DNA from: a virus
Virus record (IMG/VR): IMGVR_UViG_3300012984_000014
Coordinates: 1-64,000 of that record
Reading direction: 5' to 3' (one strand)
DNA: 64,000 bases
Shown here: positions 39,031 to 57,528 of the stretch, in pieces
Position numbering within the stretch: position 1 is the stretch's first letter
Layout of the letters: each line of letters starts with the position of its first letter
Notes under the pieces: generated by a model
What the model saw: the letters and a program-made list of their open reading frames with translations, nothing else
The model's database searches: none
What the model was told of the DNA's origin: nothing
Made by a program: the position numbers and the translations under genes

Positions 39031-39051
39031 GCCAATCCACTTCAAGTTACC

Positions 39052-41129: not shown

Positions 41130-41356
41130 AGCATGAATGGGTGCAAGATTCAAGGGTTCCGGAGCCGACTACAAAGCATGAAGGCTGGAAGCCTGCAGAG
41201 AAGTGCGCAAAATGTGGCGTTTCTCGCTCGTACGTGGCTTGTTTCTTTCCGAATAATCCAGACGAAGGATGCGAAGGCAATTCGTTTGGTTGCAACCCGT
41301 TCGTAATAATGTTGATTTTGTTGTCGATAGGCGCATTGATAAAGGTGTTCAAGTGA
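41126..41356 (+). CDS. Small hypothetical protein (Cys motifs, C-terminal hydrophobic helix)
   Basis: ATGA overlaps at both ends. CAKC plus further Cys. Confidence 0.45.
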   Translation: MKHEWVQDSRVPEPTTKHEGWKPAEKCAKCGVSRSYVACFFPNNPDEGCEGNSFGCNPFVIMLILLSIGALIKVFK

Positions 41357-42099
41357 GCACTGTGGCGTCCATCATCGAAGATCTGAAGCTGCACGACCGC
41401 CTCCGAATCGCCTTGGAGCGTCGGGAGCACGAGAACGTGATCGTCATGCAGGCGGACGCGCTGACAGCGCTCCGCGCGCTCCCGAGCGAGTCCATTGATC
41501 TGTTCAACTTTGACCTCCCGTACGAATCGCTGGAGAAGCATCGCGCGGTCGGCTCGACGACGCGCTTGAGCCACTCCACCAAGTCCAGCAACGATTGGTT
41601 CGGCGTGTTCCCCAACGCGCTGTTCCCCGAGATGCTGAAGGAGATGTTCCGCGCGCTCAAGCCGAATCGCCACCTATACGCCTGGTGCGATGACGAAACC
41701 AGCGACATTCTGAAGGCGGACCTAACGGCCGCGGGATTCAAGGTGTGGAAGCGACTCGTCTGGGACAAGCAGATGATCGGCATGGGGTACCACTACCGCG
41801 CGCGCTACGAGTTCATTTTGTTCGCAGAGAAGGGCAAGCGCCGCGTCGCTGACCTCGGCGTGCCTGATGTTCTGAGCTTCAAACGGATCAAGAACAAGGA
41901 TGCCTATCCAGCGGAGAAACCCGTGGAGATCAACGAGATCTTGACGCGCCAAAGCTCACTCTCCGGAGAGGTCGTGTGCGATCCATTCTGCGGAAGCGGC
42001 TCGGCCGGGAAGGCGGCGCAGAATCTCGGCCGTCGTTTCGTCGGCTTCGACGTCTCGCCCGAGGCTGTCCGCCGAACACGAGAGCGGCTTGGCCTCTGA
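41353..42099 (+). CDS. DNA amino-methyltransferase (N6-adenine/N4-cytosine, beta class)
   Basis: Catalytic motif IV variant DLPY, IVWDK-like LVWDK, YPAEKP, and SAM motif I VCDPFCGSGS in beta order. GTG start overlaps the previous stop. Confidence 0.85.
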   Translation: MSTVASIIEDLKLHDRLRIALERREHENVIVMQADALTALRALPSESIDLFNFDLPYESLEKHRAVGSTTRLSHSTKSSNDWFGVFPNALFPEMLKEMFRALKPNRHLYAWCDDETSDILKADLTAAGFKVWKRLVWDKQMIGMGYHYRARYEFILFAEKGKRRVADLGVPDVLSFKRIKNKDAYPAEKPVEINEILTRQSSLSGEVVCDPFCGSGSAGKAAQNLGRRFVGFDVSPEAVRRTRERLGL

Positions 42100-43165: not shown

Positions 43166-43239
43166 AAAAAAGTCTCGCCTTGTAAGCAAGGTCGCGCTAG
43201 TAATCCCTTCAAGTGAAGGCCGTGACCAAAGGAACCAAA

Positions 43240-44406
43240 ATGGGAAGCAGCACCGAAGAGTTCGACAGCAGCGGGCGCAAGAAGGTCAAGTGCGAGATCT
43301 GCGACAAGTTCTACCACCGCGTGGACGTGCACGCGAAAAAGATCCATAAGATTGAAGCTTCGGCGTATGCCAAGAAGTTCCCGCTTGCCGAGTTGATGAG
43401 CGAGTCGGCGCGCGAAAAGCAAGCAGAAGAGGAGGCGGCGGCGTTGGCTCCGCCTCTGCCCACGCCCGGAGTCGGCCCGGGGTCGTCTGCTGATATTTCC
43501 AAGCCGCTGCGCTTCGGCGCTGCTTCACTGTTCGAGCGCACGGGGCTCGAAGCCGAAGACATCATCAAGGTTCCGATGCACGATGAAAATTGGGTGATCG
43601 GCGCCAGTGAGCAAGCGAACCTCGAAGCGCTCGCCCTCGGCATCGAGATGAACGAGAACGTGTTGATCGTCGGCCCTCCCGGCGTAGGCAAGTCCACCCT
43701 CGCTCGCGAGCTGGCAAGCGTCTGCAATCAGCCGGTCACGCGTCTGAGCTTCACCGGCGAAGTCCGTGTGGGCGACTTGATGGGAGGCTCCCGGATCATC
43801 GTCGACCCGACGAGTGGCCAGGCCATCACCAAATACATTGACGGCCCGTTGCCAATCGCCGCTGAAAAAGGGCATTGGATCATCATGGAGGAGTTCGACA
43901 GCGCGCCGAGCCAAGTCACGTTCGCCATGCACTCGATGCTGGAACGCCCACGCCAACTCCGCTTGATGGAGTCGGATCGCGAGGTCGAATTCAACCAGCA
44001 CTTCCGCGTCCTCGCCACGGCGAACACCTTGGGCTATGGCGACGAGTCGGGCCTGTACGCGGGCACCGCGCCGATGAACGAGGCGCTCTTGGATCGCTTT
44101 GGGATTGTAATCCGTGTGGATTATCCCAAAAAGGAAGATGAAGTCAACATCCTGACGGAGAGGACTGGCATCAAGAAGGAGTGGGCAGAAATGTTGGTGG
44201 ACGTGGCCACGAAGGTCCGCGACGCGCAACGCCAAGAGTCGACGATGACTAGCCTCAGCCCGCGTCGCCTCATCATGTGGGCGGCGATGACGGTGAAGAT
44301 GAAGCACCCGCGCGCCGCTGCGCGCATCACAATTCTGAACAAGCTCCCGCCCCAAGATCATGTCTTTGTCGAAGGCATCATCCAACGTCTGTTTGGTGGA
44401 AAATGA
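43240..44406 (+). CDS. MoxR/CbbQ/CobS-like AAA+ ATPase with an N-terminal C2H2-like zinc finger
   Basis: GPPGVGKS, IIMEEFD, ATANTLG, NEALLDRF and SPRRL. N-terminal CEIC...H...H. Confidence 0.88.
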   Translation: MGSSTEEFDSSGRKKVKCEICDKFYHRVDVHAKKIHKIEASAYAKKFPLAELMSESAREKQAEEEAAALAPPLPTPGVGPGSSADISKPLRFGAASLFERTGLEAEDIIKVPMHDENWVIGASEQANLEALALGIEMNENVLIVGPPGVGKSTLARELASVCNQPVTRLSFTGEVRVGDLMGGSRIIVDPTSGQAITKYIDGPLPIAAEKGHWIIMEEFDSAPSQVTFAMHSMLERPRQLRLMESDREVEFNQHFRVLATANTLGYGDESGLYAGTAPMNEALLDRFGIVIRVDYPKKEDEVNILTERTGIKKEWAEMLVDVATKVRDAQRQESTMTSLSPRRLIMWAAMTVKMKHPRAAARITILNKLPPQDHVFVEGIIQRLFGGK

Positions 44407-46415
44407 GCAGCGCGGCCAAAACCAAGGTTGGAGGCGTTGACCCTTCCCTGCTGGGGTTGGTCGGGCCGTTCACCAAGATCGCCCGCGCGATGTCGTCGCA
44501 ATGGAACGTGACGATCATCCCGAGCGGATTCTCTTGCAAGACGGACGGGAAAACCATCTACATCCCGTTCACATCGGACTTCCTCCCGGAAAGCCAACGC
44601 CAGCAGTTGCACGGGATGCTGGATCACGAAGTCTGTCACGTGGTGGAAGAGCAGGAACACACATCCGCGGGCCGCGCCACCCCGATGGACATCCTGAAGG
44701 GCGAGAAGAACAAGACCATTCGGATGCTCACCAACTGCGTCGAAGACGTCCGGATTGAGATCAAGTGGAGCCGGGTCTATCCCGGGGTGGCCGAGAACTT
44801 GAATGCCATCAATCTGGAGTCTGCTCGCGCTTGGGAAAAGAAGCCGGAGGCGCGGCCGAACTTCTGGGATCGTTTAGGGTGTGCTTTCATTCTGAAGGCG
44901 CGCGGAATCGAACCGACTTGGGTTGGAAAAGAAACGTTGGAAGCTTTGGACAAAGTGTCCGAAGAATTGGAGGAATCACGCAATATTCGTTGGGCACAAG
45001 ATAGCTACGACATCGCGGAACGGATCTACAAGAAGCTGAAGGCGGACGCCGAAGAAACGCTGGAACGCGACAAGAAGGCCAAGGAAGAGAAGGGGAAGGG
45101 CAAGAAAAAGAAGAAGGTCAAGGTCAAGGTCGTTGAAGACGACGAGCCAGCCCCCGAGGGCGACGCGGAAGAAGGCGACGAAGCCGGAGAGCTCGAAGAC
45201 GGCGACACAGTTCGCAAGGGCAAGGCCGGATCGTCTGGCGACGATGGAACTGAGATCGAAACGGACGACGACACGGGCGGCCCGGAGTCGGACGAGGACG
45301 AAGAGGAGAAGAGCGCTGGCGGCGAAGCGGAAGCCGATGAAGAGGGCGAGGACGAAGAAAAGGCCGACAGCAAAGGCGGTTCTCCGGATGAAGATTCAGA
45401 GCCGACCGAGGAAGAAGTTGCGCGCGCCAAGGAGGTCGTCGAAGGCGAGTCGTCTACGGACGACCTGATGGACGAAGTGAAGTCGGACGTCGAGAAGGCC
45501 GCGCGCTCGGACGCGCGAACCCATCGCCGCTACGTGCCCGACTTCGATATGAAGAAGCTGGACAAGTGGATCAAGCCGTCGCCAACGTTCGACGCAGACG
45601 TCAACTACAAGAACGCGCGCGCGGAGGTCCAGTCGCAGATCGGCGCCATCCGTTCCAAGCAGCTCGCCTACATACAGACCATTACTCGAAAGCGCCTGGT
45701 GCCGAACCAAGACGCCGGCCGTTTGGACACCCAGCGCCTCGCGTCGGTTCGTACGGGCGCCACCGACGTCTTCAACTTCATCAAGAAGGGCCGAAACCTG
45801 GACACCTCGTTCGAGGTTCTTCTGGACCTCTCCGGCTCGATGGGTTCTGGAGACGCCCCGGGCCGCGCTGCCTATTACGCCAAGCGCACCGCCATTGCCC
45901 TGGCAGAGCCTTGGGAATCGCTTCGGATCCCGTTCGAGATCATCGGGTTCACCAACAATCACATGCGCGGTTCGTTCCGATCCGGAGACCCGGATGCCGT
46001 CCGAAGGTGTCCCTTTGACTTCTACATTTTCAAGGGCTGGAATGAGCGCATGGCAGCGTGTCGGACGCGCTTTTCAGCGATCCGAGGCTATGACGACAAC
46101 GCAGACGGCGAGGCTGTCCACGCCGCTGCTTGCCGCCTCGCGGTCCGCCCCGAGAAGCGACGGATCTTGGTGGTTGTCTCCGACGGCCTCCCGTGCCATT
46201 CTGGCATCAGCCGTTCCGCTCTCGATGATCACCTCAGGGAGACCGTCCGCCAGATCACCCGTGCTGGCATTGAGGTCATCGGCGTCGGCGCCGGAACGGA
46301 CGCACCCGCGCAATTCTACAACAAGTCAACCGGCGCCAGCAACATGATCATCAAGGATCTGAACAAACTCGCCACGACGCTTTTCAAAACTCTTCGAGAC
46401 AGGATGCTGAAATGA
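44403..46415 (+). CDS. CobT-like VWA-domain protein with an N-terminal HExxH domain and acidic linker
   Basis: HEVCH...NCVEDVRIE, acidic linker, MIDAS LLDLSGSMG, NADGEA and VVSDGLP. Confidence 0.85.
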   Translation: MSSAAKTKVGGVDPSLLGLVGPFTKIARAMSSQWNVTIIPSGFSCKTDGKTIYIPFTSDFLPESQRQQLHGMLDHEVCHVVEEQEHTSAGRATPMDILKGEKNKTIRMLTNCVEDVRIEIKWSRVYPGVAENLNAINLESARAWEKKPEARPNFWDRLGCAFILKARGIEPTWVGKETLEALDKVSEELEESRNIRWAQDSYDIAERIYKKLKADAEETLERDKKAKEEKGKGKKKKKVKVKVVEDDEPAPEGDAEEGDEAGELEDGDTVRKGKAGSSGDDGTEIETDDDTGGPESDEDEEEKSAGGEAEADEEGEDEEKADSKGGSPDEDSEPTEEEVARAKEVVEGESSTDDLMDEVKSDVEKAARSDARTHRRYVPDFDMKKLDKWIKPSPTFDADVNYKNARAEVQSQIGAIRSKQLAYIQTITRKRLVPNQDAGRLDTQRLASVRTGATDVFNFIKKGRNLDTSFEVLLDLSGSMGSGDAPGRAAYYAKRTAIALAEPWESLRIPFEIIGFTNNHMRGSFRSGDPDAVRRCPFDFYIFKGWNERMAACRTRFSAIRGYDDNADGEAVHAAACRLAVRPEKRRILVVVSDGLPCHSGISRSALDDHLRETVRQITRAGIEVIGVGAGTDAPAQFYNKSTGASNMIIKDLNKLATTLFKTLRDRMLK

Positions 46416-47473
46416 TCCAGGGCCAGGTGGACCACGAATTGTACGAAGACATCGAGCGTGAGCTGATGCCCATCATCCGCTCCGCGGCGCGGCGCTTCGC
46501 GCCCGGCCTCGGAATCAGCACTGAGGATGCCGTCCAAGAGGGGCGCCTGGCGCTGATGCTCGCTCTGAAGGGATATGACTACAACGCCAGCAAGGGCGGG
46601 ATTTACAACTTTGCCCGCAAGACCATCCGGAACGCGATGTGCGGTCTGCTCTACTCGGCCACGACGCAGAGCCGATGCCCGCGCGTGGTGATGGAAGAGA
46701 ACGGCGAGCTGGTTGTTGTGAAGATGTGGCCGGCTCTGACGGACGTTCCCGAGGTCCATCCGGACAGGGATGCCAAGACGCCTGAAGAACTGGCGATCGA
46801 AAGCGAGTTCACGGACAAAATCCGTGTACTTCGTATGCGCTTGGTCAATCGCCTAAATCCTTTTCAGCTGAAAGTCTTGAGTTGCATTTCCAGAAACAAC
46901 GTTCTTTTTGAGACATTCTTGCGCAATCGAGACGAGCCCGAGGCGACGCACGCTCTCATCGGCGAGTGGCTTGGAATGGGAATGGACGAAGACGGCGAAG
47001 CCAAATTGGCCTCGGGCAATCGCCACACCAAAAAGAATGCCGTTGATTGGGCCGTCCACAGAATCAAGCAGCACTTCACGGTTCTGATGGAGGCCGAATT
47101 CAGCGACATCGTGGAGGAGGCCATACAAGCCGGGAAGTGGCCCATGTTTTACGTTTCGACGAAGCAAAACGACAAGTCCTTCATTCAGGGCATCATCGAG
47201 AAGCGCTCGCTGGACGCGCGCCCGATCTCCTCCCCTGAAATCAAGGCCCGTACCGGCAAGGACGGGACGCGAGCCGTCCGGCACATCGAAACGTATTCGT
47301 GGGGCTCGGTCATCATGCTAAGTTTTGGCGAAAATGCAGCAACCGTAGTTGCCGAAGGACGATTCAACGCCATCAGCGGCGAGGTCCTTCAGCCGTCGGG
47401 CTCCTGGAAGTCCATTCTGGACGTTGTTCCCTGGTACGTCAAAGCGTCGCACTTTATCAACGAAAAGGGCTGA
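46412..47473 (+). CDS. Phage sigma-70-like transcription factor with a C-terminal extension
   Basis: Region 2 EDAVQEGRLALMLALKGYD...YNFARKTIRNAM and region 4-like TPEE...LNPFQLKVL. Confidence 0.7.
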   Translation: MIQGQVDHELYEDIERELMPIIRSAARRFAPGLGISTEDAVQEGRLALMLALKGYDYNASKGGIYNFARKTIRNAMCGLLYSATTQSRCPRVVMEENGELVVVKMWPALTDVPEVHPDRDAKTPEELAIESEFTDKIRVLRMRLVNRLNPFQLKVLSCISRNNVLFETFLRNRDEPEATHALIGEWLGMGMDEDGEAKLASGNRHTKKNAVDWAVHRIKQHFTVLMEAEFSDIVEEAIQAGKWPMFYVSTKQNDKSFIQGIIEKRSLDARPISSPEIKARTGKDGTRAVRHIETYSWGSVIMLSFGENAATVVAEGRFNAISGEVLQPSGSWKSILDVVPWYVKASHFINEKG

Positions 47474-47474
47474 A

Positions 47475-48344
47475 ATGGCTGACAAGAGGATGCCGCGGTG
47501 CCTCGGCTCATTCGAGGAAGACGACCCGCAATGCGATGGCGATCCTGTAGGAAAGACAGAAGCCGAGCGCGCGCCATGCGCATATCGCGATAGGTGCGCC
47601 GGCTTCGTGAAGCTGATGCAGATCACCAAGCGGCCGCGGGATTACTTCATCAGGACGATGGAAGTGATCGGGCAAGGCAAGTCCAAGCCGGTCGCTTACA
47701 CATTCGCAAATCATGAAGGGTTCGAGGAGCAGGTGAACGAGCAGATTCTGCTGTATGGAATCCACGGCGGACGAGCGCGCAACGAAAAGCCGTTGAAGCC
47801 TCGAATGGTGGTGAAAAAGACGCCGAAGGTAACGGGGCTCAGGAAGCCACCTAGGCCCACCAAGGCGTTTGCTCGGGCCGGGGCCAAGGCTCGGGCCAAG
47901 CAAACTCGGGACGGCCGCGAGAAGTCAAAAGAGGTGGGACAGTGGTACATCAAGCGCGTGGCGACTCGTTTGGCACGGAAGGTGGCTGCGTTCGAGGAGT
48001 CCGCGCGCCCTGGCGAGTTGTTCCTTGTGGACCGGCTCGAATCCTCCAACTACTGTGCCTTGTACTGCAAGGGGAAGACGCGGCGGATCGCGATCACGAG
48101 TTACCTGTACAAGCCGAACAGGGGGCTGATCGAGGTCCGCCTGGCAGTGGCGTTTGCGGACTACATGACAGCGTGCTCACGCTCGGAGCGTGATGGGCTC
48201 GCCCCGGTCGACCACACAGGCAAAGACGGGGCTTTCAAGGTGCGAATCATGAACGTTGACTCGCACAACGCGAGCGTGATAGCAGAGACGCTTTCCAAGG
48301 TGGACAAGCGCGGCGGCTTCGCGTTCCCAGAGGCAAGAACATGA
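47475..48344 (+). CDS. Hypothetical protein (N-terminal Cys cluster, basic centre)
   Basis: ATG at 47475 after the sigma stop. CLG...C...CAYRDRC. Confidence 0.55.
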   Translation: MADKRMPRCLGSFEEDDPQCDGDPVGKTEAERAPCAYRDRCAGFVKLMQITKRPRDYFIRTMEVIGQGKSKPVAYTFANHEGFEEQVNEQILLYGIHGGRARNEKPLKPRMVVKKTPKVTGLRKPPRPTKAFARAGAKARAKQTRDGREKSKEVGQWYIKRVATRLARKVAAFEESARPGELFLVDRLESSNYCALYCKGKTRRIAITSYLYKPNRGLIEVRLAVAFADYMTACSRSERDGLAPVDHTGKDGAFKVRIMNVDSHNASVIAETLSKVDKRGGFAFPEART

Positions 48345-49330
48345 AGAAGAAAATGGTGATCGTCGGCGGAGGTATCTCGGGCTTGATCGCGTCCTGGGTG
48401 TACACGCAGGTGCCCGGGCTCGACGTCGTGGTGCTGGAGCCGGGGAAGCCGGGCGGAGACTTCGCGGCCGGCGGGCTCAAGTACATCCACAAGACGGACC
48501 CGATGGAGGAGCTGCTTCAAGACCTCCGAATCACTTACACAGACTACAGCGTTCAGGGCGGCATCCTGCTCCACGGCGCCGTGGAGCCTTTCCCGGCAGT
48601 CCTCAAAGGGATGGACAAGGGGCGCGCGCTACGGATTCAGCACGATCACTACCGCAAGACACGCCAGATCGAGCCCGACGCCTTTGCCGCGCGCTCGATG
48701 AACGACCCTGAAAGCTCGGGCCCGCGGAAGGCGCTCCGCTGCGATATGGAAAGGATGCTCAAGGACTTGATCGGGCTCGCGCCGATCGCAAAGGATGGCT
48801 GCGCGCGCATCGATCCTCACCGTGTAATCGGGACGTCGGGCAATCAATACCTGTTCGACTACCTGCTGCTGACCATCCCGATCTGGGTGATCAAGACCAT
48901 GGTCTGGTTCCCGCTCCCGGACACGATGGCCATCAAGCTGAACCTCGTGATGGTCGACCCGCCGGAGAAGGTCGACGCCTTTGCCCAGTGGGATTACGTC
49001 TACACGCCATACACACCCGAGAACATGATCCATCGGATCAGCCCGCGCGACGGCGGCTACACGTGCGAGTTCAACGGCGCCTGGGAGGAGGGCGACGGAA
49101 CCGGGGACAAACTCACCTCTGAGCTCAACTTCCTGTTCCCGGGCGGCTGGGCGCTCGCGCGGACGCTGAAGGGCCTCAACGGACACCTGCTGCCGATGAC
49201 CACCAAGCCCGTCTGGCCCGACAACATCCGCCCGCTCGGGCGCTTTGCGCAGTGGGATCCGCGGATGACCTCCGACGTCGTGCTCAGTACGTGTCTGGAA
49301 CAGGCAAAAGCATGGAATCTGACTACCTAG
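48341..49330 (+). CDS. FAD-dependent oxidoreductase
   Basis: IVGGGISGL...VVVLE dinucleotide-binding motif, LLLTIP and C-terminal LGRFAQW. Confidence 0.85.
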   Translation: MKKKMVIVGGGISGLIASWVYTQVPGLDVVVLEPGKPGGDFAAGGLKYIHKTDPMEELLQDLRITYTDYSVQGGILLHGAVEPFPAVLKGMDKGRALRIQHDHYRKTRQIEPDAFAARSMNDPESSGPRKALRCDMERMLKDLIGLAPIAKDGCARIDPHRVIGTSGNQYLFDYLLLTIPIWVIKTMVWFPLPDTMAIKLNLVMVDPPEKVDAFAQWDYVYTPYTPENMIHRISPRDGGYTCEFNGAWEEGDGTGDKLTSELNFLFPGGWALARTLKGLNGHLLPMTTKPVWPDNIRPLGRFAQWDPRMTSDVVLSTCLEQAKAWNLTT

Positions 49331-50217
49331 TCAGGATGTGGGCTGCCCAAGAGCAGCAGCAGCGTGAACTAGGGCTCGACCCCGCGGAACTGAGCGACGT
49401 CGAACGGCGACGCCTAGGTGATGATCTCGCGCTCCTCCTGCACGAGGAGGCGTCAGAGCTGGGGCGCCTTTCCGGAGGCTACAAGCGGCACATCCTGCGT
49501 GCGTCGAAGGTGGACCGTCACGCGGTCGCGTTCGAGTGCGCGGACGTGCTGAAGACGATGCTGGCCCAGGCGCAACTCCACGGCGTGACGCTAGGCGAGT
49601 TGGTCGACGCCTTCACGCAGAAGACCGAGGCCGTGCGCCAGAAGGCGCTCGCCGAACACCTGGAGCTGAGCGAGTCCTGCCGCGTCCTGTGCGTGGACGT
49701 GGACGACGTGATCTGCGACCTCGAACCTTGGCGCGACGAGTTGAAGAAGCTCGGGCCCGTCGAAGCAGCGGCCGCGCTCCGCCTCGAAGCGTCGGAGGAC
49801 ATGAAGAACGCCTTTTACTCGGGCGGACGCTTCCGCGAGATGGCGGCCGTTCCCGGAGCTGCCGAAGGACTCGCGCGCGTCTCCGCGGCCGGGGTCAAGA
49901 TCGTCCTCATCACGGCGCGCCCCCAGTGGCAGTACAAGCGCCTCCATTCTGACACGGTCTACTGGCTAAACCGCGAGGGAATGACGTACGACCTCCTGCT
50001 GTTCAGCCGGAACAAGGTGGAGGCCGTCTATGACCACGTGCGCCCGGCGTGGCCCATCGCTTTCGTGGAAGACCACCCGGTCAATGCCGATGCAATCGCT
50101 GAAGCTGGCATTCAAGTCCTTCTGTACGATCAACCACACAATCGTCACGTTTCAGCGAAGTCAGGGATCACCCGGGTAGCTAGCTGGACCGATATCACAA
50201 CGAAGTTGGGAGTGTAA
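49312..50217 (+). CDS. All-alpha (dimeric dUTPase/MazG-like) NTP pyrophosphatase fused to a HAD 5'(3')-deoxyribonucleotidase
   Basis: LHEEASEL...FECADVL...LVDAFTQK for the MazG-like part. VDVDDVI (DxD), ITARP, FVEDHPVN and DQPHN for the NT5C-like HAD part. Start is 49312 or 49336. Confidence 0.78.
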   Translation: MESDYLVRMWAAQEQQQRELGLDPAELSDVERRRLGDDLALLLHEEASELGRLSGGYKRHILRASKVDRHAVAFECADVLKTMLAQAQLHGVTLGELVDAFTQKTEAVRQKALAEHLELSESCRVLCVDVDDVICDLEPWRDELKKLGPVEAAAALRLEASEDMKNAFYSGGRFREMAAVPGAAEGLARVSAAGVKIVLITARPQWQYKRLHSDTVYWLNREGMTYDLLLFSRNKVEAVYDHVRPAWPIAFVEDHPVNADAIAEAGIQVLLYDQPHNRHVSAKSGITRVASWTDITTKLGV

Positions 50218-50223
50218 TCTGAA

Positions 50224-51582
50224 ATGAACAACGCAGACAGCAGCTACGATTACGAGCAATACAACAAGCGCCTGATGGGCAACATCGTCCGGATGCCTCT
50301 GGTGGTCGGCAGTGCCAAGGGTTGCCATTTGGAGGTTCGTCTAGGAGGCGGTCCGGAAGTCGAACCCATCTTGGACTTCTGGGGCGATGAGGGCGTGGCC
50401 TCGCTCGGCTACAACTCGGACGAGTTCCGGATGGCCATGGCCGAATTCCTGAACGCTGAGATGCCGCAACGCCTCCCCGACGTCTACCCGCACGAACTGC
50501 GTTGGCAGGCGGCAGAGATCATCTGCTCGCGTACGGGCATGGATCGCCTGTTCTACTCCAACAGCGGCACGGAGGCGAACGAGGCCGCCATCAAGCTCGC
50601 GCGCAAATACTGGTGGGACAAGGAAGCTGCCGAGGGAACCCCGGGCTTTGGCGACGCCTTCCCTCAGTTCAAGAACTGCGCGCGCCGACACAAGATATAC
50701 ACCATTGAAGGCAACTTCCACGGCCGCACGGGCTACTCGCTCGCCGCGAGCGACTACCGCGTCAGCCCGTACCACCGCACCGGCTACGGCGTCAGCGCAC
50801 CGGGTTTCGGCGTGATCACGGAAGACCTCCGTGAAGTCGCCTTCGACGGCCAGGAAATGACGGGCATCGAGGAGCCCGACTGGACCAAGGTCGCTGCCGT
50901 GATGCTCGCACCCGTCCTCGGGAACAATCTGGTCAAGACCTATCCGCAGAGCTTCTGGGAACGGCTCGACCGTCTCCGGAAGCAGCACGGCGTCCTGCTC
51001 GTGTACGACGATGTACAGGCGGGCAACGGGCGAGCCGGCCACTACGCTACGTGGCAGAAGTGCGGCGTCAAGCCGGACATCATGTCACTCTCCAAGGGCA
51101 TTGCGATGGGGCTCCCGATGAGCGTCACGCTGGCCTCGGAGGAGGTCGCCAAAAGCTTCGCAACGCCAGGCGTCCACTTCAACACGTTCGGCGGGACGCT
51201 CTTGTGCTGCCACTTGGCGATCAAGCTCTACAAGTGGTTGGACGAGCACCTGCACGAAGTCCGCGAGCGCGGCGACTTCATCCGGGAGCAGTTCGGCGCG
51301 CGCTCCTGGATAAAGCACTTCGACGGCTCCGGGATGCTGAACGCCTTCCAGCCGGACTTCAAGGAGTTTGGCTATGACGGCTATCAATTCATCGCGCGCT
51401 CGCGGGAGAACGGGCTGGCTCTCGTGACTCACCGCCAGCATGGGATGATCCGCTTCACGCCTCCGCTGAACGTCACGCAGAGCGACCTACAGGAGGCGTT
51501 CAACATCCTCGACAGGACCCACAAACAGCTCGCGGCGGAAGCCGTCGCGGACGCCGAAAAACTCGGAATGGGGGCGGTTTGA
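50224..51582 (+). CDS. Class III PLP-dependent aminotransferase (ArgD/OAT-like)
   Basis: NSGTEANEAAIKLAR, GNFHGRT, DDVQAGNGRAG, PDIMSLSKG (PLP lysine), TFGG and IRFTPPL. Confidence 0.92.
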   Translation: MNNADSSYDYEQYNKRLMGNIVRMPLVVGSAKGCHLEVRLGGGPEVEPILDFWGDEGVASLGYNSDEFRMAMAEFLNAEMPQRLPDVYPHELRWQAAEIICSRTGMDRLFYSNSGTEANEAAIKLARKYWWDKEAAEGTPGFGDAFPQFKNCARRHKIYTIEGNFHGRTGYSLAASDYRVSPYHRTGYGVSAPGFGVITEDLREVAFDGQEMTGIEEPDWTKVAAVMLAPVLGNNLVKTYPQSFWERLDRLRKQHGVLLVYDDVQAGNGRAGHYATWQKCGVKPDIMSLSKGIAMGLPMSVTLASEEVAKSFATPGVHFNTFGGTLLCCHLAIKLYKWLDEHLHEVRERGDFIREQFGARSWIKHFDGSGMLNAFQPDFKEFGYDGYQFIARSRENGLALVTHRQHGMIRFTPPLNVTQSDLQEAFNILDRTHKQLAAEAVADAEKLGMGAV

Positions 51583-52577
51583 ACACGCCCAAGGTCACGC
51601 TCCTTTCGCACACGGGGCTCCCGCTGGAAACGGTGATGAGCCTCTGGAACGCCTCGAAGGATGAGCTGCCGCTGCTCACCCCAGAGGAGATCAAGGCGAC
51701 GGTCGACCCGGATGACGTCCGCAAGCTGTTCCGCGAGGTCATCGCGCAACACATCCCCGTCGGCGAGTCGGTGGACTTCGTGTTCATGATCGAGGGCGTC
51801 AGCGTCTCGTGGCGCGAGCAGGCCGTGCGTCATCGCATCGGCGTCAAGCCCTCGCCCGAGCGCCTGGGGATCGACATCGGCATGATCGACGTGAAGGACT
51901 TACCGAACCTAGCCGACAGCGTTTATTGGTCTCAGTCGATGCGAATCCAGAACATGGGCAAGTTCGCCGATTTGGACAACTATCGGACGCCGGAGACGAT
52001 CGTGCAGCACGCCGATTCCGAAAAGTTGAAGGCCATATATGACGAGACGATGTGGCTTATCCAGGAAGGCTACAACAAGTTGGTCGCGGCCGGGATCCCG
52101 ATGGAGGACGCACGCGAGCTGATCCCGCTCGGGGCCACGCACCGCATCTCGTGGAAGCTGAACATCAGCTCGCTCCAACACATCGTGTCGAAGCGCGGCT
52201 GCTGGATCCTACAGCTCGGAATCTGGGGCCCGGTCATCGAGGGGATGATCCGAGAATTGACCGAAAAGGTGGATCCAATCTTCGGTGAGTTGGTCACACC
52301 TCCGTGCCTGAAGGGCGACGAGTTCAAGGGCTGCGTCTACATGGAGGAGAACCGTCGGCGCTACACCGGCGACGACAAGCTGCCTCCGTGCCCGCTCCAC
52401 GTCGTCCACCACCACATGGACCAGTCGACGCCGGCAGCGGACCGTCAGTTGGTCGCGTCTTGCGGCATCGACCTCGGGGTGCCGATGCAATCCGAGATGC
52501 GCAAGCGCGCTGAAGATTACCGCAGTTTTTGGGGTCGTGACCCGTACTCGGGCAAACGGCTGCGCGTGCTCCGATGA
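51579..52577 (+). CDS. thyX: Flavin-dependent thymidylate synthase homologue with an insertion in the ThyX motif
   Basis: HIPVGE...FVFMIEGVS...REQAVRHR...SQSMR and EDARELIPLG...LNISSLQHIVSKR. Confidence 0.82.
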   Translation: MNTPKVTLLSHTGLPLETVMSLWNASKDELPLLTPEEIKATVDPDDVRKLFREVIAQHIPVGESVDFVFMIEGVSVSWREQAVRHRIGVKPSPERLGIDIGMIDVKDLPNLADSVYWSQSMRIQNMGKFADLDNYRTPETIVQHADSEKLKAIYDETMWLIQEGYNKLVAAGIPMEDARELIPLGATHRISWKLNISSLQHIVSKRGCWILQLGIWGPVIEGMIRELTEKVDPIFGELVTPPCLKGDEFKGCVYMEENRRRYTGDDKLPPCPLHVVHHHMDQSTPAADRQLVASCGIDLGVPMQSEMRKRAEDYRSFWGRDPYSGKRLRVLR

Positions 52578-52795
52578 CGCCAGTGCTGCTTTGCGAGTAC
52601 ATCGTGGCCGGCGCGCTCGGGCTCGCCGGAGCCGTCTTCATTCTGGCTTGCCTCGCGGCGCTCATCAAGTGGCTCTTCATCAAGCCGGATCCTGACGACG
52701 ATGGCGACGAGGACGACGACGGCGAGGAGCGGCCCGCCGACTTCAAGGCGACGTCGAAGGCAGCGGCCATGGCAGCATCGAAGGACACCAATTGA
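52574..52795 (+). CDS. Small membrane protein with an acidic tail
   Basis: One hydrophobic helix. ATGA/TTGA coupling on both sides. Confidence 0.5.
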   Translation: MTPVLLCEYIVAGALGLAGAVFILACLAALIKWLFIKPDPDDDGDEDDDGEERPADFKATSKAAAMAASKDTN

Positions 52796-53373
52796 TCATC
52801 GTCCTCGAAGGCGTCAACGGAACGGGCAAGAGCACGTACGCGGAGAAGCTCTCCAAGGGCCTCAACGCGCCCGTGCTCCGCCCGTTCCGGCAGGGTCCCG
52901 ATCACCACTTCACCGGCACCACGAGCATCGAGCGCGAGCTGAAGGCGCTCGCCGTCCCGTACAACACGCACGTGGACGACATCTACACGGCGGACATCCT
53001 CGCGCGGCTGCTCAAGTTCAACAAGCACATCCCGGTCATCCTGGACCGCTCGGTGGGCAGCGCGATAGCGCACGGGGAACGCCCGCTAAGGGACGCCGGG
53101 CGCCTGCTTGGGCTCTGGCAACAGCTGCTAGGTCCGGACACGCACGTGGTGTACGTTTGGCTCACGGCGCCGTGGTCTGTAGCCAACCCTCGGTTGGCTC
53201 TCGATCGGCGCGGGCGCTTCACCGAGGAAGAGCACAAGCGGCTTCACGGGCTGTTTCGCTACGTGTTCGAGATGGTGCGATACACCAAGTTGGAGATCGA
53301 CACCGCGAACGTCGATGCGAACGATGGCGTGAAGCAGATCGTCGAGTTGATGGGAATTGTCCAAACTCGATGA
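52792..53373 (+). CDS. Thymidylate-kinase-like dNMP kinase
   Basis: IVLEGVNGTGKST P-loop and ILDRSVGSAIAH (DR motif). Confidence 0.85.
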   Translation: MIIVLEGVNGTGKSTYAEKLSKGLNAPVLRPFRQGPDHHFTGTTSIERELKALAVPYNTHVDDIYTADILARLLKFNKHIPVILDRSVGSAIAHGERPLRDAGRLLGLWQQLLGPDTHVVYVWLTAPWSVANPRLALDRRGRFTEEEHKRLHGLFRYVFEMVRYTKLEIDTANVDANDGVKQIVELMGIVQTR

Positions 53374-53680
53374 ACTCAGAGCGAAACTCCGAACCGGCGA
53401 ATTGGAAGCCGAGTTGGAGGCAAGGCGCGAGCAGTCCAACAGGATTTACAAGATAAATCCATCGGGATCGGATGCGCTGATCAAGTTCGGGCGCCACCGC
53501 GGTCTTACCCTCCTCCAGATCAAGCAGAAAGAACCGGGCTATCTGGACTTCATTCGCAACTCGGACTTCCCCGAGGAGCTGAAGGACGTCGTGCGGTACA
53601 TACAGACGATCACCGCGGCCAAGGAGATCTCCCTGGCGGCCGACTCGTTGACCGACTGGCTCAAAGGCGACAAGAAATGA
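53357..53680 (+). CDS. Small protein with an ExoX C-terminal-like (FGKHKG) domain
   Basis: IKFGRHRGLTLLQIKQKEPGYLDFI. Confidence 0.55.
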   Translation: MSKLDELRAKLRTGELEAELEARREQSNRIYKINPSGSDALIKFGRHRGLTLLQIKQKEPGYLDFIRNSDFPEELKDVVRYIQTITAAKEISLAADSLTDWLKGDKK

Positions 53681-56600
53681 CCGATACAACCGACGACTTC
53701 GTGCACCTCCACACGCACAGCGACATGAGCCAGCTGGACGGGTGCGGGAAGATCAGCGAGTACGTCAAGACAGCGAAACTCCGCGGGCATAAGGCGCTCG
53801 CCTTCACGGACCACGGCACGATGCGCGGCGTGATGACGCACTACGAGCAGTGCAAGGAGGTAGGCATCAAGCCCATCTTCGGCACCGAGTTCTACGTGTC
53901 GAAGAACATGTTCAGGAAGGGCCTGACGGCGGAGGAGAAAGCCGAGCTGACCAAAGGCGCGAAGAAGGCGGACCACAAGGAGATCCTCCGCGCGTATGAG
54001 GACCACGAGGGCATCCGCGACCGTTGGCACATCACGTGCTGGGCGCAGACGAACGAGGGCCTGAAGAACCTGTACAAGCTCTCCAGCATGAGCTTCATTG
54101 ATGGGTTCTACTACAAGCCGCGCATCGACCTCGCGACCCTGATCAAGCACGGTGCGGGCATCCACGTCGCCTCTGGTTGCCTGTCGAGTCCGATCAACGA
54201 CTCGTGGAACGAGGGTCGGAAGCGGGACGCGCTGAACTACGCCGATCAGCTTCAGGAGGCGTTCGGCGAGCGTTTCTGGTTGGAGGTTCAGCCACACGCC
54301 ATCGATATTCAGTGCGAAGCAAACCGCCTGATGATGAAGCTCCACGATCGCTACGGCGGCAAGTCGCGCTACCTCGCGACGCAGGACGCCCACTATGTGG
54401 ATCAGGCGGACGCGGAGCACCACGAAGTGCTGCTGTGCATCGGGACGGGCTCGAACCTGAGCGACCCGAAGCGCTTCAAGTTTGACGGCGATGAGTTCCA
54501 CTTCCGGACGCGAAAGGAGATGTGGAACGCCTTCAAGCGCCACCACGACTTCTTGCCCGGTCGCTGCGTTAAAGAGGCATTAAATTCCACCATAGAACTA
54601 GCTGAATCTTGCACAGCGAAGATGGAGGTGGACTATCACAAGGTGTTGCTTCCAGACCCCGGCATCCCGGCAAAATATGCCGGTGACCCCTTTGCCTATC
54701 TGAAGGACGAGTGCGTGATGGGATGGGCTTGGCGGGACATCCCGACGCGCGCCCGGGCGTACGCAAAGCGCGAAGGAATCACGCCTGTGGACGCCATCGA
54801 GCTGTACCGCGCGCGCCTGAAGATGGAGTTGAAGGCGCTGAAGGTGCAGCGGTTCGTCCCATACTTCTTGATCATCCGTGACATCTACCGCTTCGCCCGG
54901 GAAGCCTCCATCATGGTCGGCCCAGGTCGTGGCTCCGTCGGTGGATCACTGATCGCCTACTTGTTGGGAATCGCGGCGACGGACCCGATTGAGCACGGCC
55001 TGATCTTCGAGCGCTTCATCAGCCCAACTCGTATCGACATGCCCGACGTGGACATGGACTTCGAGGACCGGCGACGCGGCGAGATCATCCAGTACATCAG
55101 GACCAAGTATGGCGACGACAAGGTGTGCCAGATAGCCACCATCGGCAAACTCTCCGGCAAGGAGTGCATCCGGTCCGTCTCGCGCGTCCTGGAGATCCCC
55201 CTGAACGAGGTCAATCAGGTCACGAACAGCATCATTGAACGGTCGTCCGGCGACGAACGCGCCAGCCAGACGATCGCCGACAGCTTCCGTGACTTCGAGA
55301 TCTGCCGCGCCTTCAACAAGAAGTATCCCGAGGTGCTCCGTCACGCCCAAAAGCTCGAAGGCATGGCCAAGAACCTCGGAATCCACGCCGCTGGTGTCGT
55401 CGCCAGCCCTATCCCGCTCGTGGAGGCGATACCGCTGGAGGTCCGCAAGCACGCAGGCGGCGACATCGTCGTATCAGCATTCGACATGTATGGCGTGGCG
55501 GCCGCGGGGCTCGTAAAAATGGACGTGCTCGGCCTCCGAACGCTTTCTGTCGTCAAGGAGGCTTTGGAAGCCATCGAGGCTCGGCACGGCATACACATTG
55601 ACCCCGAGCGACTGGATCTGAACGACCCTAAGGTGCTCGCTGGCTTCACGGCGCACGACTACGGCGGCGTGTTTCAGTACGACACCCCGAGCGCGGACAA
55701 GGTTTGCATCGGCGTCAACTTCACGAGCTTTGAAGACGTCGCCGCGATGACGGCGCTCAACCGGCCGGGCACGAGCCGCTCCGGCCTCGCAACCAAGTAC
55801 GTGGAGCGCAAGAAGAACCCAAAATTGGTGGAAAAGATCGACTTCCACCCTGCCGTCTCCGCTATCACAAAGGACACACTGGGAATCATCGTCTACCAGG
55901 AGCACGTTCTGCGCATCTTCACCGACATCGCGGGTTTCGCTCCGGCGACTGCAGACAAGCTGCGCAAGACCATTGCCAAGAAGATCGGCGACGAGACGCT
56001 GGGAAAGGAGCGCGAGAACTTCGTGGAGGGCGCGATGAAGACCACGCCCGGGATGACGGAGGCGGTCGCCAACAAAATCATGGACGCGATCACGTTCTTC
56101 GGGTCGTACGGTTTCAATAAGAGCCACGCAACGGCCTACGGGATGATCGCCTATTGGTGCATGTGGATCAAGGTCTACTACCCTGTGGAGTTTTACTGGG
56201 CGCTTCTCAAGAACGAGCCCGAGCGAATCCGAATCCAACAGATTGCCAAGGACGCGAAGAAACACGGCATTGTGCTGTCTCCACCCCACGTTTCCTCGTC
56301 GTCTACCAACTTCAGCATCGACGGCGCGCTGGCCATTCGTGGCTCGCTCGTGGACATAAAGGGCGTGGGAGAGAAGGCCGCGCAAGCCATCATGGAGGCG
56401 CAGCCTTTCAAAGACATCATGGACTTCATCGCGCGCGTCGACCGTCGGCGCTGCAATCGCGGGGCTGTCGTGGCGCTCGCGAAAGCCGGCGCGCTCGACG
56501 GCCTGATGCCGAACATCAAGTGGTTCATCGAGAATGCAGACACGGTTTGGGACAAGCTCACATCGAAGCGGAAGCGGGACACAGGCGCGGCCGCGCTCGC

Positions 56601-57528
56601 GCTTCTGGAGGAGTCGAAGCTGACGGAGGACTACAACGAGGAGGACAAGCTGCTGGTAAGTTCGAAGGTTTCGCCGCTCGCATTCGGGCGTCACCCAATC
56701 GACGCCTATGCCTCTTTCATGGAGTCAGACATGAAGGTGGAGCTGGCGGAGATGGGCGCCGACGACTACTTCAAGGAGTACAACAACCGCGGCCACTTCA
56801 TCGCGGGCGTGATCGTGGAGGTCAAGTACAACCAGATCGGCGACTTCCACACCGGTCCCATGCCGACCGAGCTGGAGCGCAAGCAGCAGTTCTGGGGCGC
56901 GCGCTACGCGAACGTCAACATTGAGGAGCGCTCCGGTAAGCAGAACCGGGTGAAGTTCGATCACGACATCTTCGACGCGAACCGCCACATCATTGACAAG
57001 GGCGTCGGAACAGCAGTGATGGCCCATGTGACGGCGAGCGAATTCACGCAGACCCTCCGGGCCCAGTTCGCTATCGATGTGGATGACTTCCGGAAGCGTG
57101 CGCGCGCCTTCGAGCCGCTGACCATGTGGGAGACGATCGTCAAGGGTAAGCACCCCGCGAAGTTCTACCCGTGGCGTGACATCAAGCTCCGGAAGGCGCG
57201 CCTGCGCAATACTCTCTTCTGGGATCGGGACGCCGGCCCGTTCTGCGGTGTGGTCACGAATGTTCGCCTGAAGTACGACAAGAAGGGCAATTGCATGGCC
57301 TACTTCGGGTTGATCGGCGGTGACCTCCGATACACAGACGTGATGTGCTTCGCGTCGTTGTGGGACGAGATCAGGCGTGTCGTGAAGGTCGGCCGGCTGA
57401 TCAAGATCGATCTGGTGCGGAAAAAGGACGACTTCCGTGGCGGAAAAAGCGCCATGTTCGAAGGCGGCCGCGTGACGCATTTGAAGCGCGCACCATCATA
57501 TTCAGCCGCGCTCGGCACGTCTGAGTAA
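53677..57528 (+). CDS. dnaE: DNA polymerase III alpha subunit (family C) with a PHP domain
   Basis: HLHTHSDMSQLDG, TDHG, YYKPRID, TQDAHY, GPGRGS, PDVDMDF, HAAGVV, MDVLGL and YGFNKSHA. No intein evident. Confidence 0.95.
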   Translation: MTDTTDDFVHLHTHSDMSQLDGCGKISEYVKTAKLRGHKALAFTDHGTMRGVMTHYEQCKEVGIKPIFGTEFYVSKNMFRKGLTAEEKAELTKGAKKADHKEILRAYEDHEGIRDRWHITCWAQTNEGLKNLYKLSSMSFIDGFYYKPRIDLATLIKHGAGIHVASGCLSSPINDSWNEGRKRDALNYADQLQEAFGERFWLEVQPHAIDIQCEANRLMMKLHDRYGGKSRYLATQDAHYVDQADAEHHEVLLCIGTGSNLSDPKRFKFDGDEFHFRTRKEMWNAFKRHHDFLPGRCVKEALNSTIELAESCTAKMEVDYHKVLLPDPGIPAKYAGDPFAYLKDECVMGWAWRDIPTRARAYAKREGITPVDAIELYRARLKMELKALKVQRFVPYFLIIRDIYRFAREASIMVGPGRGSVGGSLIAYLLGIAATDPIEHGLIFERFISPTRIDMPDVDMDFEDRRRGEIIQYIRTKYGDDKVCQIATIGKLSGKECIRSVSRVLEIPLNEVNQVTNSIIERSSGDERASQTIADSFRDFEICRAFNKKYPEVLRHAQKLEGMAKNLGIHAAGVVASPIPLVEAIPLEVRKHAGGDIVVSAFDMYGVAAAGLVKMDVLGLRTLSVVKEALEAIEARHGIHIDPERLDLNDPKVLAGFTAHDYGGVFQYDTPSADKVCIGVNFTSFEDVAAMTALNRPGTSRSGLATKYVERKKNPKLVEKIDFHPAVSAITKDTLGIIVYQEHVLRIFTDIAGFAPATADKLRKTIAKKIGDETLGKERENFVEGAMKTTPGMTEAVANKIMDAITFFGSYGFNKSHATAYGMIAYWCMWIKVYYPVEFYWALLKNEPERIRIQQIAKDAKKHGIVLSPPHVSSSSTNFSIDGALAIRGSLVDIKGVGEKAAQAIMEAQPFKDIMDFIARVDRRRCNRGAVVALAKAGALDGLMPNIKWFIENADTVWDKLTSKRKRDTGAAALALLEESKLTEDYNEEDKLLVSSKVSPLAFGRHPIDAYASFMESDMKVELAEMGADDYFKEYNNRGHFIAGVIVEVKYNQIGDFHTGPMPTELERKQQFWGARYANVNIEERSGKQNRVKFDHDIFDANRHIIDKGVGTAVMAHVTASEFTQTLRAQFAIDVDDFRKRARAFEPLTMWETIVKGKHPAKFYPWRDIKLRKARLRNTLFWDRDAGPFCGVVTNVRLKYDKKGNCMAYFGLIGGDLRYTDVMCFASLWDEIRRVVKVGRLIKIDLVRKKDDFRGGKSAMFEGGRVTHLKRAPSYSAALGTSE

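Follow-up and report, generated by a model that had tools for sequence, protein, structure and literature searches.

The 116,461-bp IMG/VR virus record IMGVR_UViG_3300012984_000014, which CheckV rates as 100% complete, carries at 48341-57528 a block of eight co-oriented plus-strand genes, considered here as a candidate module for tailoring pyrimidine deoxynucleotides ahead of replication. The window analyzed is the first 64 kb of this record, and positions refer to it unless record positions are stated. The block encodes a flavoprotein (FADox), a pyrophosphatase-nucleotidase fusion protein, a class-III pyridoxal phosphate (PLP) aminotransferase (AT3), a divergent member of the ThyX family (ThyXL), a kinase resembling thymidylate kinase (TMK), two small open reading frames (ORFs) and a DnaE replicative polymerase (Table 1). 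The junctions between them are, in gene order, a 19-nt overlap, a 6-nt gap and then overlaps of 4, 4, 4, 17 and 4 nt. Annotation is based on profile searches with Pfam, PHROGs and NCBIfam, and on PADLOC as well. An earlier note, made from the letters of this DNA, had described eight consecutive genes ending in the polymerase and had named their enzyme classes; the coordinates and the Pfam, PHROGs and NCBIfam matches confirm both points. The separate dUTPase that it also listed is not borne out, since the fusion with the nucleotidase has the NTPase as its N-terminal domain.

Table 1. Genes of the block at 48341-57528, with strand and principal profile evidence
Gene product	Position	Strand	Evidence
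FADox, flavoprotein, 329 aa	48341-49330	+	Pfam: N-terminal Rossmann part only
MazG/dUTPase-like + NT5C fusion protein	49312-50217	+	NT5C E 1.4e-11; weak PRA-PH/MazG match
AT3, class-III PLP aminotransferase	50224-51582	+	Aminotran_3 E 1.3e-54
ThyXL, divergent ThyX, 332 aa	51579-52577	+	Thy1 74 bits
Small ORF, 73 aa	52574-52795	+	Without family match
TMK-like P-loop deoxynucleotide kinase	52792-53373	+	Thymidylate_kin 23 bits; PHROGs thymidylate kinase E 5e-12
Small ORF, 107 aa	53357-53680	+	Weak ExoX-like_C match
DnaE replicative polymerase	53677-57528	+	Pfam; PHROG 405 E 4e-294

Enzymes encoded by the block

ThyXL scores far above the Thy1 (PF02511) cut-off of 24.8 bits (Table 1) but below the equivalog level of the NCBIfam thyX model (59.7 vs. 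a cut-off of 87.9), and a match to ThyX sequences of the Protein Data Bank (PDB) was reached only by profile search (E 1e-4). Its AlphaFold2 (AF2) model, with a mean predicted confidence (pLDDT) of 78, finds as fold matches only ThyX and PolB chains (Z 10-11.9, root-mean-square deviation, rmsd, of about 4.2, about 197 residues aligned). Residues Q81, R84, H85, R86, S120, R122, E176, R179, and R206 of ThyXL correspond to Q75, R78, H79, R80, S88, R90, E144, R147, and R174 of the Thermotoga maritima enzyme; E176, R179, and R206 were placed by HMMER alignment to 1kq4/8rep, and Q81, R84, R86, S120, and R122 by the family alignment. The contiguous ThyX signature RHRx7-8S...SxR is split in ThyXL, with RHR (84-86) and SQSMR (118-122) about 31 residues apart, and the insert between them (87-117) is disordered in the AF2 model, with pLDDT <50. 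An insert of 25-35 residues in the substrate loop occurs in all members of the ThyXL family and is absent from shorter phage ThyX proteins. Both RHR and SQSMR are invariant in an alignment of 20 members, as are C208, C243, C252, and C271, the four cysteines carried by a C-terminal extension of about 120 residues. Identity to canonical ThyX is about 18-20%. Canonical ThyX proteins (those of T. maritima, Mycobacterium tuberculosis and PBCV-1) and PolB, a methylase of uridine and deoxyuridine monophosphate (UMP/dUMP), thus have the fold and the nucleotide-binding arginines, serine and glutamate in common with ThyXL but lack its insert between RHR and SxR and its four-cysteine extension. The variant ThyX announced in the earlier note is confirmed by this split motif and tail.

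The ThyXL family is large, with 376 matches, mostly of 314-365 aa and many on contigs of 90-116 kb. No member was found in 185,579 prokaryote species, each represented by one genome, or in the cultured phages searched, where the best matches were ordinary ThyX proteins at 25-28% identity. By these comparisons, ThyXL is a distinct, virus-restricted ThyX subfamily. A predicted complex of ThyXL with AT3 obtained a score of 0.00, which weighs neither for nor against binding.

AT3 retains the PLP lysine (K291), the aspartate facing PLP-N1 (D262) and the carboxylate-binding arginine (R410), all invariant or nearly so in 21 sequences, and also the GNFHGRT motif. Throughout the clade, on the other hand, the EPIQGE motif has changed to APVLGNN. 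The best solved relative is the acetylornithine aminotransferase 2eh6, but AT3 falls below the ArgD and ornithine aminotransferase (OAT) equivalogs (best NCBIfam score 192 vs. 410) and the glutamate switch of EPIQGE is gone. Origin as a host-derived ArgD was therefore rejected, AT3 belonging to a phage-only subfamily with an altered motif. An alignment-based scan of IMG/VR found this subfamily in 24 viral contigs, all 24 of which also carry ThyXL; when the AT3 protein alone was the query against viral contigs, there was no match.

Pfam matches of FADox (Thi4, NAD_binding_8, and DAO) are confined to the N-terminal Rossmann part. Its AF2 model (pLDDT 92) has as its best fold match (VIA) eukaryotic UDP-galactopyranose mutase (UGM), with Z 26.7, rmsd 3.1 and 323 of the 329 residues aligned, followed by protoporphyrinogen oxidase (PPO; Z about 23) and L-amino-acid oxidase (Z about 20). 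Judged by this model, FADox is a minimal member of the amine-oxidase/UGM/PPO flavoprotein superfamily that stands outside every named family. Assignment as a true UGM was rejected, as there is no match to the GLF or Amino_oxidase profiles, glycosylation genes are absent and the Z-score for UGM exceeds that for PPO by only about 3. A FADox profile gathers 173 clusters at E<1e-30. Hypothetical proteins of viruses make up the nearest clusters in the ESM Atlas, and the FADox family appears to be viral.

The fusion protein is read from the ATG at 49312, although the longest ORF begins at 49252. Its C-terminal part matches NT5C (PF06941) with 45 bits against a cut-off of 24.8, and its N-terminal domain is of the all-alpha NTP pyrophosphatase type, similar to MazG and dimeric dUTPases; the N-terminal domain of a homologous fusion in another locus (L043) matches dUTPase_2. 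The EE..E and E..D..K motifs of the first domain and the HAD motifs of the second (DxD, TARP, K, and ED) are kept in 17 orthologues, and the HAD residues D124-x-D126, K230, and E248-D249 are conserved. A tblastn search with the whole fusion against cultured phages found only HAD-domain nucleotidases of actinophages. Two loci of PolA-type phages (L034:8165-8917 and L040:8836-9468) have just 5′ of ThyXL a gene for a YfbR-type HD 5′-deoxynucleotidase, which is non-homologous to the NT5C fusion and occupies the same position.

The kinase matches Thymidylate_kin (PF02223) with 23.1 bits, below the cut-off of 27. Its P-loop, EGxNGxGKS/T, and the LDRSxPSAxAYG motif are kept in 18 orthologues; the P-loop and D85-R86 are invariant, and the third position of the DR(Y/F/H) motif is serine. 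One orthologue, in L038, matches deoxynucleoside kinase (dNK) too. No solved relative was found by phmmer against PDB sequences, and PADLOC gave nothing apart from weak P-loop matches for this kinase. Catalytic motifs are thus intact in ThyXL, AT3, the HAD domain and the kinase. Regarding the small ORFs, the 73-aa one has no match in Pfam, PHROGs, NCBIfam, or PADLOC and was not detected by tblastn in related loci. The 107-aa one recurs at 36-43% identity in many related loci, always immediately 5′ of DnaE, and probably encodes a polymerase accessory protein that lies outside the nucleotide pathway. DnaE itself has PHP, Pol III alpha, fingers and helix-hairpin-helix (HhH) domains, and its best cultured relatives are only about 32% identical.

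Conservation of the gene set in viral genomes

Co-occurrence of these genes was followed by alignment-based scans of IMG/VR with ThyXL, FADox and AT3, and then by tblastn and hidden Markov model (HMM) searches of the loci found. About 30 viral contigs carry FADox, the MazG-NT5C fusion, ThyXL and AT3, together with the kinase and DnaE wherever the contig reaches them. The recurrence of the same gene set in so many contigs indicates that the grouping is more than chance, and the co-occurrence of the five enzymes across phages, which the earlier note had proposed as a check, holds over deep divergence: identity among the contigs falls to 28% for FADox and to 33-40% for DnaE. The module is a mark of an uncultured clade of soil phages with genomes of about 100 kb, and megablast of the 9.2-kb block against cultured phages gave no match. 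Gene order varies among the contigs, with AT3 before or after ThyXL and the kinase shifting position too. A complete, terminally repeated genome (G002) has ThyXL and AT3 at one site and a very divergent FADox-like ORF directly upstream of MazG-NT5C at another. Indeed, FADox lies immediately upstream of the NT5C fusion wherever both occur, G002 and L043 included.

Relation to known systems

A distant version of the module is found in Pbunavirus PB1. The PB1 protein gp68, annotated as hypothetical, is a distant full-length homologue of FADox (hhalign probability 89%, E 2e-6, 261 aligned columns). Its gp61 is a ThyX of 305 aa with the same four cysteines as ThyXL, with RTR in place of RHR and without the insert. 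gp59, annotated as a polynucleotide kinase, consists of an N-terminal HAD domain, for which the match probability is only 19%, and a helical C-terminal domain, and gp57 is a DnaE-like polymerase with 32% identity. The stretch from gp59 to gp68 corresponds to L108:12795-17173. PB1 thus resembles the module in having a FADox homologue, a four-cysteine ThyX, a HAD fusion and a DnaE-like polymerase in one replication block, although the similarity is remote. Virion DNA of the Pbunaviruses F8 and 14-1 was found by LC-MS (liquid chromatography coupled to mass spectrometry) to contain hypermodified thymidine, which replaces about one quarter of T, in a TG context; its biosynthetic genes were not assigned (Yee et al., PMC12191111). 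It is suggestive, from gene content, that the PB1-type core could be the source of this modification.

Bacillus phages of the SPO1, SP8 and phi-e type, whose DNA contains 5-hydroxymethyldeoxyuridine (hmdU), and PBS2, whose DNA contains deoxyuridine (dU), replace thymine before replication. The logic is the same as the one considered here: a synthase homologue acting on dUMP, activities degrading thymidine tri- or monophosphate (dTTP, dTMP), a phage deoxynucleoside monophosphate (dNMP) kinase and a phage polymerase. At the domain level, this gene set, with a synthase homologue, an enzyme degrading deoxynucleoside tri- or monophosphates, a dNMP kinase and its own polymerase, is present in the block. 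These phages differ, however, in that their hydroxymethylases belong to the ThyA family rather than the ThyX family, and they have neither an aminotransferase nor an amine-oxidase-type flavoprotein.

Post-replicative hypermodification of thymidine has been described in the phages M6, ViI, PaMx11, SP10, PhiW-14, and SH-Ab 15599 (PMC5889632, PMC8989533, PMC13458397). Flavin-dependent and PLP enzymes are known tailoring steps in such pathways (PMC8989533), and the thymines produced bear amines on their C5 side chains, 5-aminomethyl-dU being one of them. These systems, however, work on DNA and depend on a dUMP hydroxymethylase of the ThyA type, a 5-hmdU DNA kinase and aGPT-Pplase; decarboxylases serve as their PLP enzymes, and the flavoenzyme they use is MnmC/DAO-like. 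Pfam families of the 5-hmdU DNA kinase and aGPT-Pplase were absent from about 100 ORFs scanned in this genome, a scan that covered ORFs of 75 aa or more beyond the structural block at 1-37 kb. The same absence had been reported for the window by the earlier note. Nor was a glycosyltransferase or a radical-SAM enzyme found among these roughly 100 non-structural ORFs. Reductive pyrimidine catabolism was dropped as a candidate, because dihydropyrimidine dehydrogenase (DPD), dihydropyrimidinase and ureidopropionase were not found among them either.

Phage SP-15, which has hypermodified thymine and two Thy1-family proteins (gp9 and gp130), is similar in combining such DNA with ThyX-family genes, but the gene context differs; a Thy1-family protein of this phage was hypothesized, not shown, to be a hydroxymethyluridylate synthase (Kropinski et al., PMC5977210). 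Pairs of an oxidase and an aminotransferase are known from nucleoside antibiotics. During pacidamycin synthesis, the flavin dehydrogenase Pac11 and the aminotransferase Pac5 convert the 5′-OH of a uridine-type nucleoside through an aldehyde to a 5′-amine (PMC10643210), and the pseudouridimycin pathway has PumI as oxidoreductase and PumG as aminotransferase together with the kinase PumH and PumJ, a base-modifying enzyme acting at the nucleotide level (PMC7955054). These pathways resemble the module only in enzyme classes and differ in being bacterial secondary metabolism whose products are not DNA precursors. No described counterpart of the module was found in the literature searched; papers on glycosylated 5-hydroxycytosine (PMC13326640) and on polymerases fused to uracil-DNA glycosylase (UDG; PMC13697223) do not describe it.

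Proposed pathway

The reading favored here, tentatively and as somewhat short of an even chance, is that the module is a dedicated, virus-only system for tailoring pyrimidine deoxynucleotides, in which a pre-replicative route would yield an amine-bearing derivative of dU or thymidine (dT) and feed it to the phage DnaE. Along this route, the MazG/dUTPase-like domain would convert dUTP to dUMP, and ThyXL, with reduced flavin and a one-carbon donor, would add a carbon at C5 of dUMP, releasing a hydroxymethyl or otherwise unreduced product. FADox would then oxidize an alcohol or amine on the nucleotide or its nucleoside, AT3 would install an amino group on the resulting aldehyde, and the product would be phosphorylated by the TMK-like kinase and incorporated by DnaE. 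Class-III transaminases interconvert terminal aldehydes and primary amines. The NT5C domain would either clear competing canonical dTMP or dUMP or provide the nucleoside for oxidation. The amine could sit on the C5 side chain or on the 5′ carbon of the sugar. The likeliest product would be a C5-aminomethyl-type dU nucleotide, formed from the hydroxymethyl through the formyl compound, and a 5′-amino-5′-deoxy nucleoside is a second possibility.

Several lines of evidence point to such tailoring. The five enzymes remain syntenic in about 30 contigs despite divergence and reordering, and in G002 all four genes persist in spite of their separation into two pairs. The AT3 subfamily is confined to contigs bearing ThyXL, with APVLGNN in its substrate-recognition motif and with its PLP residues kept, and ThyXL is itself of a distinct subfamily restricted to viruses. 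A distant version of the module stands beside the DnaE-like polymerase of PB1, and its relatives F8 and 14-1 have hypermodified thymidine. Pacidamycin and pseudouridimycin supply precedents for an oxidase acting together with an aminotransferase. The altered FADox residues of a genome lacking the partner genes, described in the next paragraph, argue in the same direction. The amino-pyrimidine route proposed by the earlier note, which would run from a C5 one-carbon unit through a formyl compound to aminomethyl-dU, is supported in its enzyme classes and their joint retention but not in its singularity: a second route, to a 5′-amino nucleoside, fits the same genes and derives from the same pacidamycin precedent, so that the proposal is partly supported as one of at least two routes that would fit the gene set.

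A number of observations weigh against this tailoring reading. ThyXL is the sole thymidylate-synthase-type gene of the genome; no second Thy1 gene and no ThyA (PF00303) were found in the whole 116-kb record, and control genomes did match PF00303. All of its mappable residues linked to dUMP, folate and catalysis are kept, and ThyXL may be a plain dTMP synthase. The complete 104-kb genome G001 (L072:8001-12888) keeps FADox alone, directly before DnaE; ThyXL, AT3, MazG-NT5C and ThyA were not found genome-wide, nor does a kinase gene intervene between FADox and DnaE. Its FADox has changed at seven positions where the other aligned orthologues are invariant, the GGLKYIH motif included. This genome offers a natural negative control for DNA-modification tests. 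In PolA-type phages, ThyXL is present but AT3 and FADox are not, and it adjoins a radical-SAM/SPASM protein (L025:319-5487, L033:3069-8392) or the YfbR-type nucleotidase. The PolA phage of L043 lacks AT3 and has an ORF resembling a Rossmann/GRLA flavoprotein, a dUTPase_2-NT5C fusion and a ThyX that is shorter and has the four cysteines. The replication block of PB1 likewise has neither the aminotransferase nor the TMK-like kinase, and the Pbunavirus mark, being restricted to TG context and to about one quarter of T, requires an enzyme acting at the DNA level. Tight overlaps are general in the genome, those of 4 nt running on upstream through an unknown gene, a sigma-like gene and CobT. Lastly, co-occurrence lies largely within one clade and could reflect descent shared with the replication module.

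These exceptions refine how the parts are related. The locus L025 has, in addition to ThyXL, a second Thy1-family gene of 302 aa with the same four cysteines, and such a pairing of ThyX-family genes in one locus argues that one of them, or both, is something other than a plain thymidylate synthase. Among the parts that base-replacing phages typically combine, the earlier note listed an enzyme that destroys the canonical dNTP; for the MazG-NT5C fusion this role does not hold as a specific one, since the fusion also stands beside ThyX without an aminotransferase in L043, and PB1 is similar. From the pattern of exceptions (G001, the PolA-type phages and L043), the tightest pairs join ThyXL to AT3 and FADox to the nucleotidase fusion. 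On gene content, a wider core made up of the flavoprotein, a ThyX with four cysteines and a HAD fusion has been supplemented, in the DnaE clade only, by AT3 and the kinase.

Alternative explanations

Ordinary dTTP supply is a serious competitor, only slightly less probable than the tailoring reading. The dUTPase-like domain would produce dUMP, ThyXL dTMP and the kinase thymidine diphosphate (dTDP), and the DNA would be canonical. FADox would act in support of ThyXL, for instance as a reductase linked to NAD(P)H and passing electrons through the four-cysteine tail, and AT3 would have a supporting or unrelated role. That ThyXL is the only thymidylate synthase gene and conserves the ThyX fold and catalytic residues fits this explanation, as does the presence in the genome of a dCTP deaminase and a UDG, which ordinary dTTP pathways also have. 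Eukaryotic UGM-type flavoproteins do bind NAD(P)H (5vwt, 5vwu). In other phage types without AT3, moreover, the sole synthase found is ThyXL or a related ThyX with four cysteines, with no ThyA in five records, two of them incomplete, and the combination of four-cysteine ThyX, FADox-like protein and HAD fusion is more widespread than AT3. Against this, AT3 would be left without a role in spite of its tie to ThyXL in all 24 contigs and its remodeled substrate site, a 5′-deoxynucleotidase fused to a dUMP-producing domain would be counterproductive, G001 has the flavoprotein without any ThyX, and a dedicated reductase for ThyX is without precedent. At the opposite extreme, the genes might have no functional link and be neighbors only through compact replication modules that phages inherit as blocks, for which the chance appears slight. 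Start/stop overlaps extend upstream into unrelated genes and therefore do not by themselves define an operon; the tight packing described in the earlier note, with its overlaps and 6-nt gap, is real but not special to the eight genes. Consensus scans found no promoter or terminator signals that set the block apart, the counts of sites equaling the shuffled expectation, and co-occurrence is mostly within one DnaE-bearing clade. Mere neighborhood is, however, difficult to reconcile with joint retention despite reordering and the split into two pairs in G002, with the strict tie of AT3 to ThyXL, and with the loss of the block as a unit in G001, where conserved FADox residues changed at the same time.

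Two further explanations concern where the amine would go. A sugar-5′ route, which is a sub-case of the tailoring reading and looks improbable, would run from dUTP through dUMP to dTMP (ThyXL), thymidine (NT5C), thymidine-5′-aldehyde (FADox) and 5′-amino-5′-deoxythymidine (AT3), the product serving as a nucleoside analogue either in free form or once phosphorylated by the kinase. Documented pathways to 5′-aminonucleosides use matching enzyme classes (PMC7955054, PMC10643210), the constant adjacency of FADox and the NT5C fusion would suit enzymes of which one makes the substrate of the other, a uridine nucleotide sugar is the ligand of the solved folds nearest to FADox, and the L038 kinase orthologue matches deoxynucleoside kinases. 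No phage is known to make such a compound, however, and no biological role for it is evident; modules of the PB1 and L043 types have no aminotransferase; and the site directly before DnaE suggests a polymerase substrate, whereas natural 5′-N-linked DNA is unknown. Alternatively, FADox as an amine or polyamine oxidase and AT3 as an omega-transaminase would produce or shorten a diamine, a polyamine or an amino acid, such as putrescine or 1,3-diaminopropane, and this amine would join the thymine precursor through the exocyclic-methylene intermediate of ThyXL or through an unrecognized DNA-level enzyme. Such amine-donor supply is quite unlikely, even though FADox has the fold of the amine-oxidase family and the nearest characterized relatives of AT3 act on ornithine, acetylornithine, putrescine and diaminobutyrate. 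Thymines modified with polyamines exist, one of them using host 1,3-diaminopropane made with a class-III diaminobutyrate transaminase (PMC13458397), and MnmEG-type chemistry with flavin and folate captures amines on an exocyclic methylene (PMC8989533). The scanned ORFs, however, contain neither a 5-hmdU DNA kinase nor aGPT-Pplase, no decarboxylase or other polyamine gene was found, and FADox pairs with the nucleotidase fusion, not with AT3.

Neighboring genes

Upstream of the block lie genes for a DnaB-like helicase, an N6/N4 DNA methyltransferase, a primase and a CobS/CobT-like pair. The methyltransferase gene (41269-42099), between those of the helicase and the primase, implies that the phage relies on methylation too. 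The pair at 43213-46415, a CobS-like AAA+ ATPase (AAA_5 and CbbQ_C) with a CobT-like VWA protein, is directly 5′ of a sigma-70-region-2-like gene (46412-47473) and is kept in nearly all related contigs, very divergent ones included. At 37903-39546, a plus-strand ORF of 375 aa (37903-39030) overlaps a minus-strand ORF of 463 aa (38155-39546), and neither has a family match.

Downstream genes encode HU, RecA, Mre11/Rad50-like proteins, a flap endonuclease, a UDG-superfamily protein, a GIY-YIG endonuclease and a dCTP deaminase. At record positions 68529-70198 (L002:8630-10299), the UDG-superfamily protein, the endonuclease, which is of the GIY-YIG/NUMOD3 homing type, and the dCTP deaminase stand in a row. 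The deaminase was rejected as a conserved member of the module, as it is absent from five related genomes and is an accessory of this genome only. The 63 pooled ORFs at 64-109 kb of the record gave one match to YAcAr, of the SLOG family related to YspA/cpYpsA (E 6e-23), and one to a response-regulator receiver domain; terminase and portal genes follow at 109-113 kb of the record.

Implications

To our knowledge, all phage routes to modified thymine begin with a ThyA-type hydroxymethylase, and most known ones end on the polymer, through a DNA kinase and aGPT-Pplase. As it stands, the module is a variant of the known phage systems for pyrimidine nucleotides and thymidine modification, not a demonstrated new kind. 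The strongest form of the proposal, a first ThyX-based replacement of a base or nucleotide in which an amine-bearing thymidine analogue is made at the nucleotide pool and enters DNA via the kinase and DnaE, with the core also serving as the Pbunavirus machinery, is on present evidence rather unlikely. If true, such a ThyX-based, transaminase-containing route at the nucleotide pool would represent a new biosynthetic logic, add an activity to the ThyX fold and provide amine-functionalized nucleotides from a new source, and in the variant with a 5′-amino-5′-deoxy nucleotide it would place N-P links in the DNA backbone. Even if the pathway is ordinary, the module defines a ThyX subfamily that is confined to viruses, has a metal-type tail of four cysteines and is accompanied by a flavoprotein. 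The module also offers concrete candidate genes for the Pbunavirus modification, and the clade of soil phages of about 100 kb, and possibly the Pbunaviruses used in phage therapy, would be candidates for having DNA that resists restriction enzymes and CRISPR.

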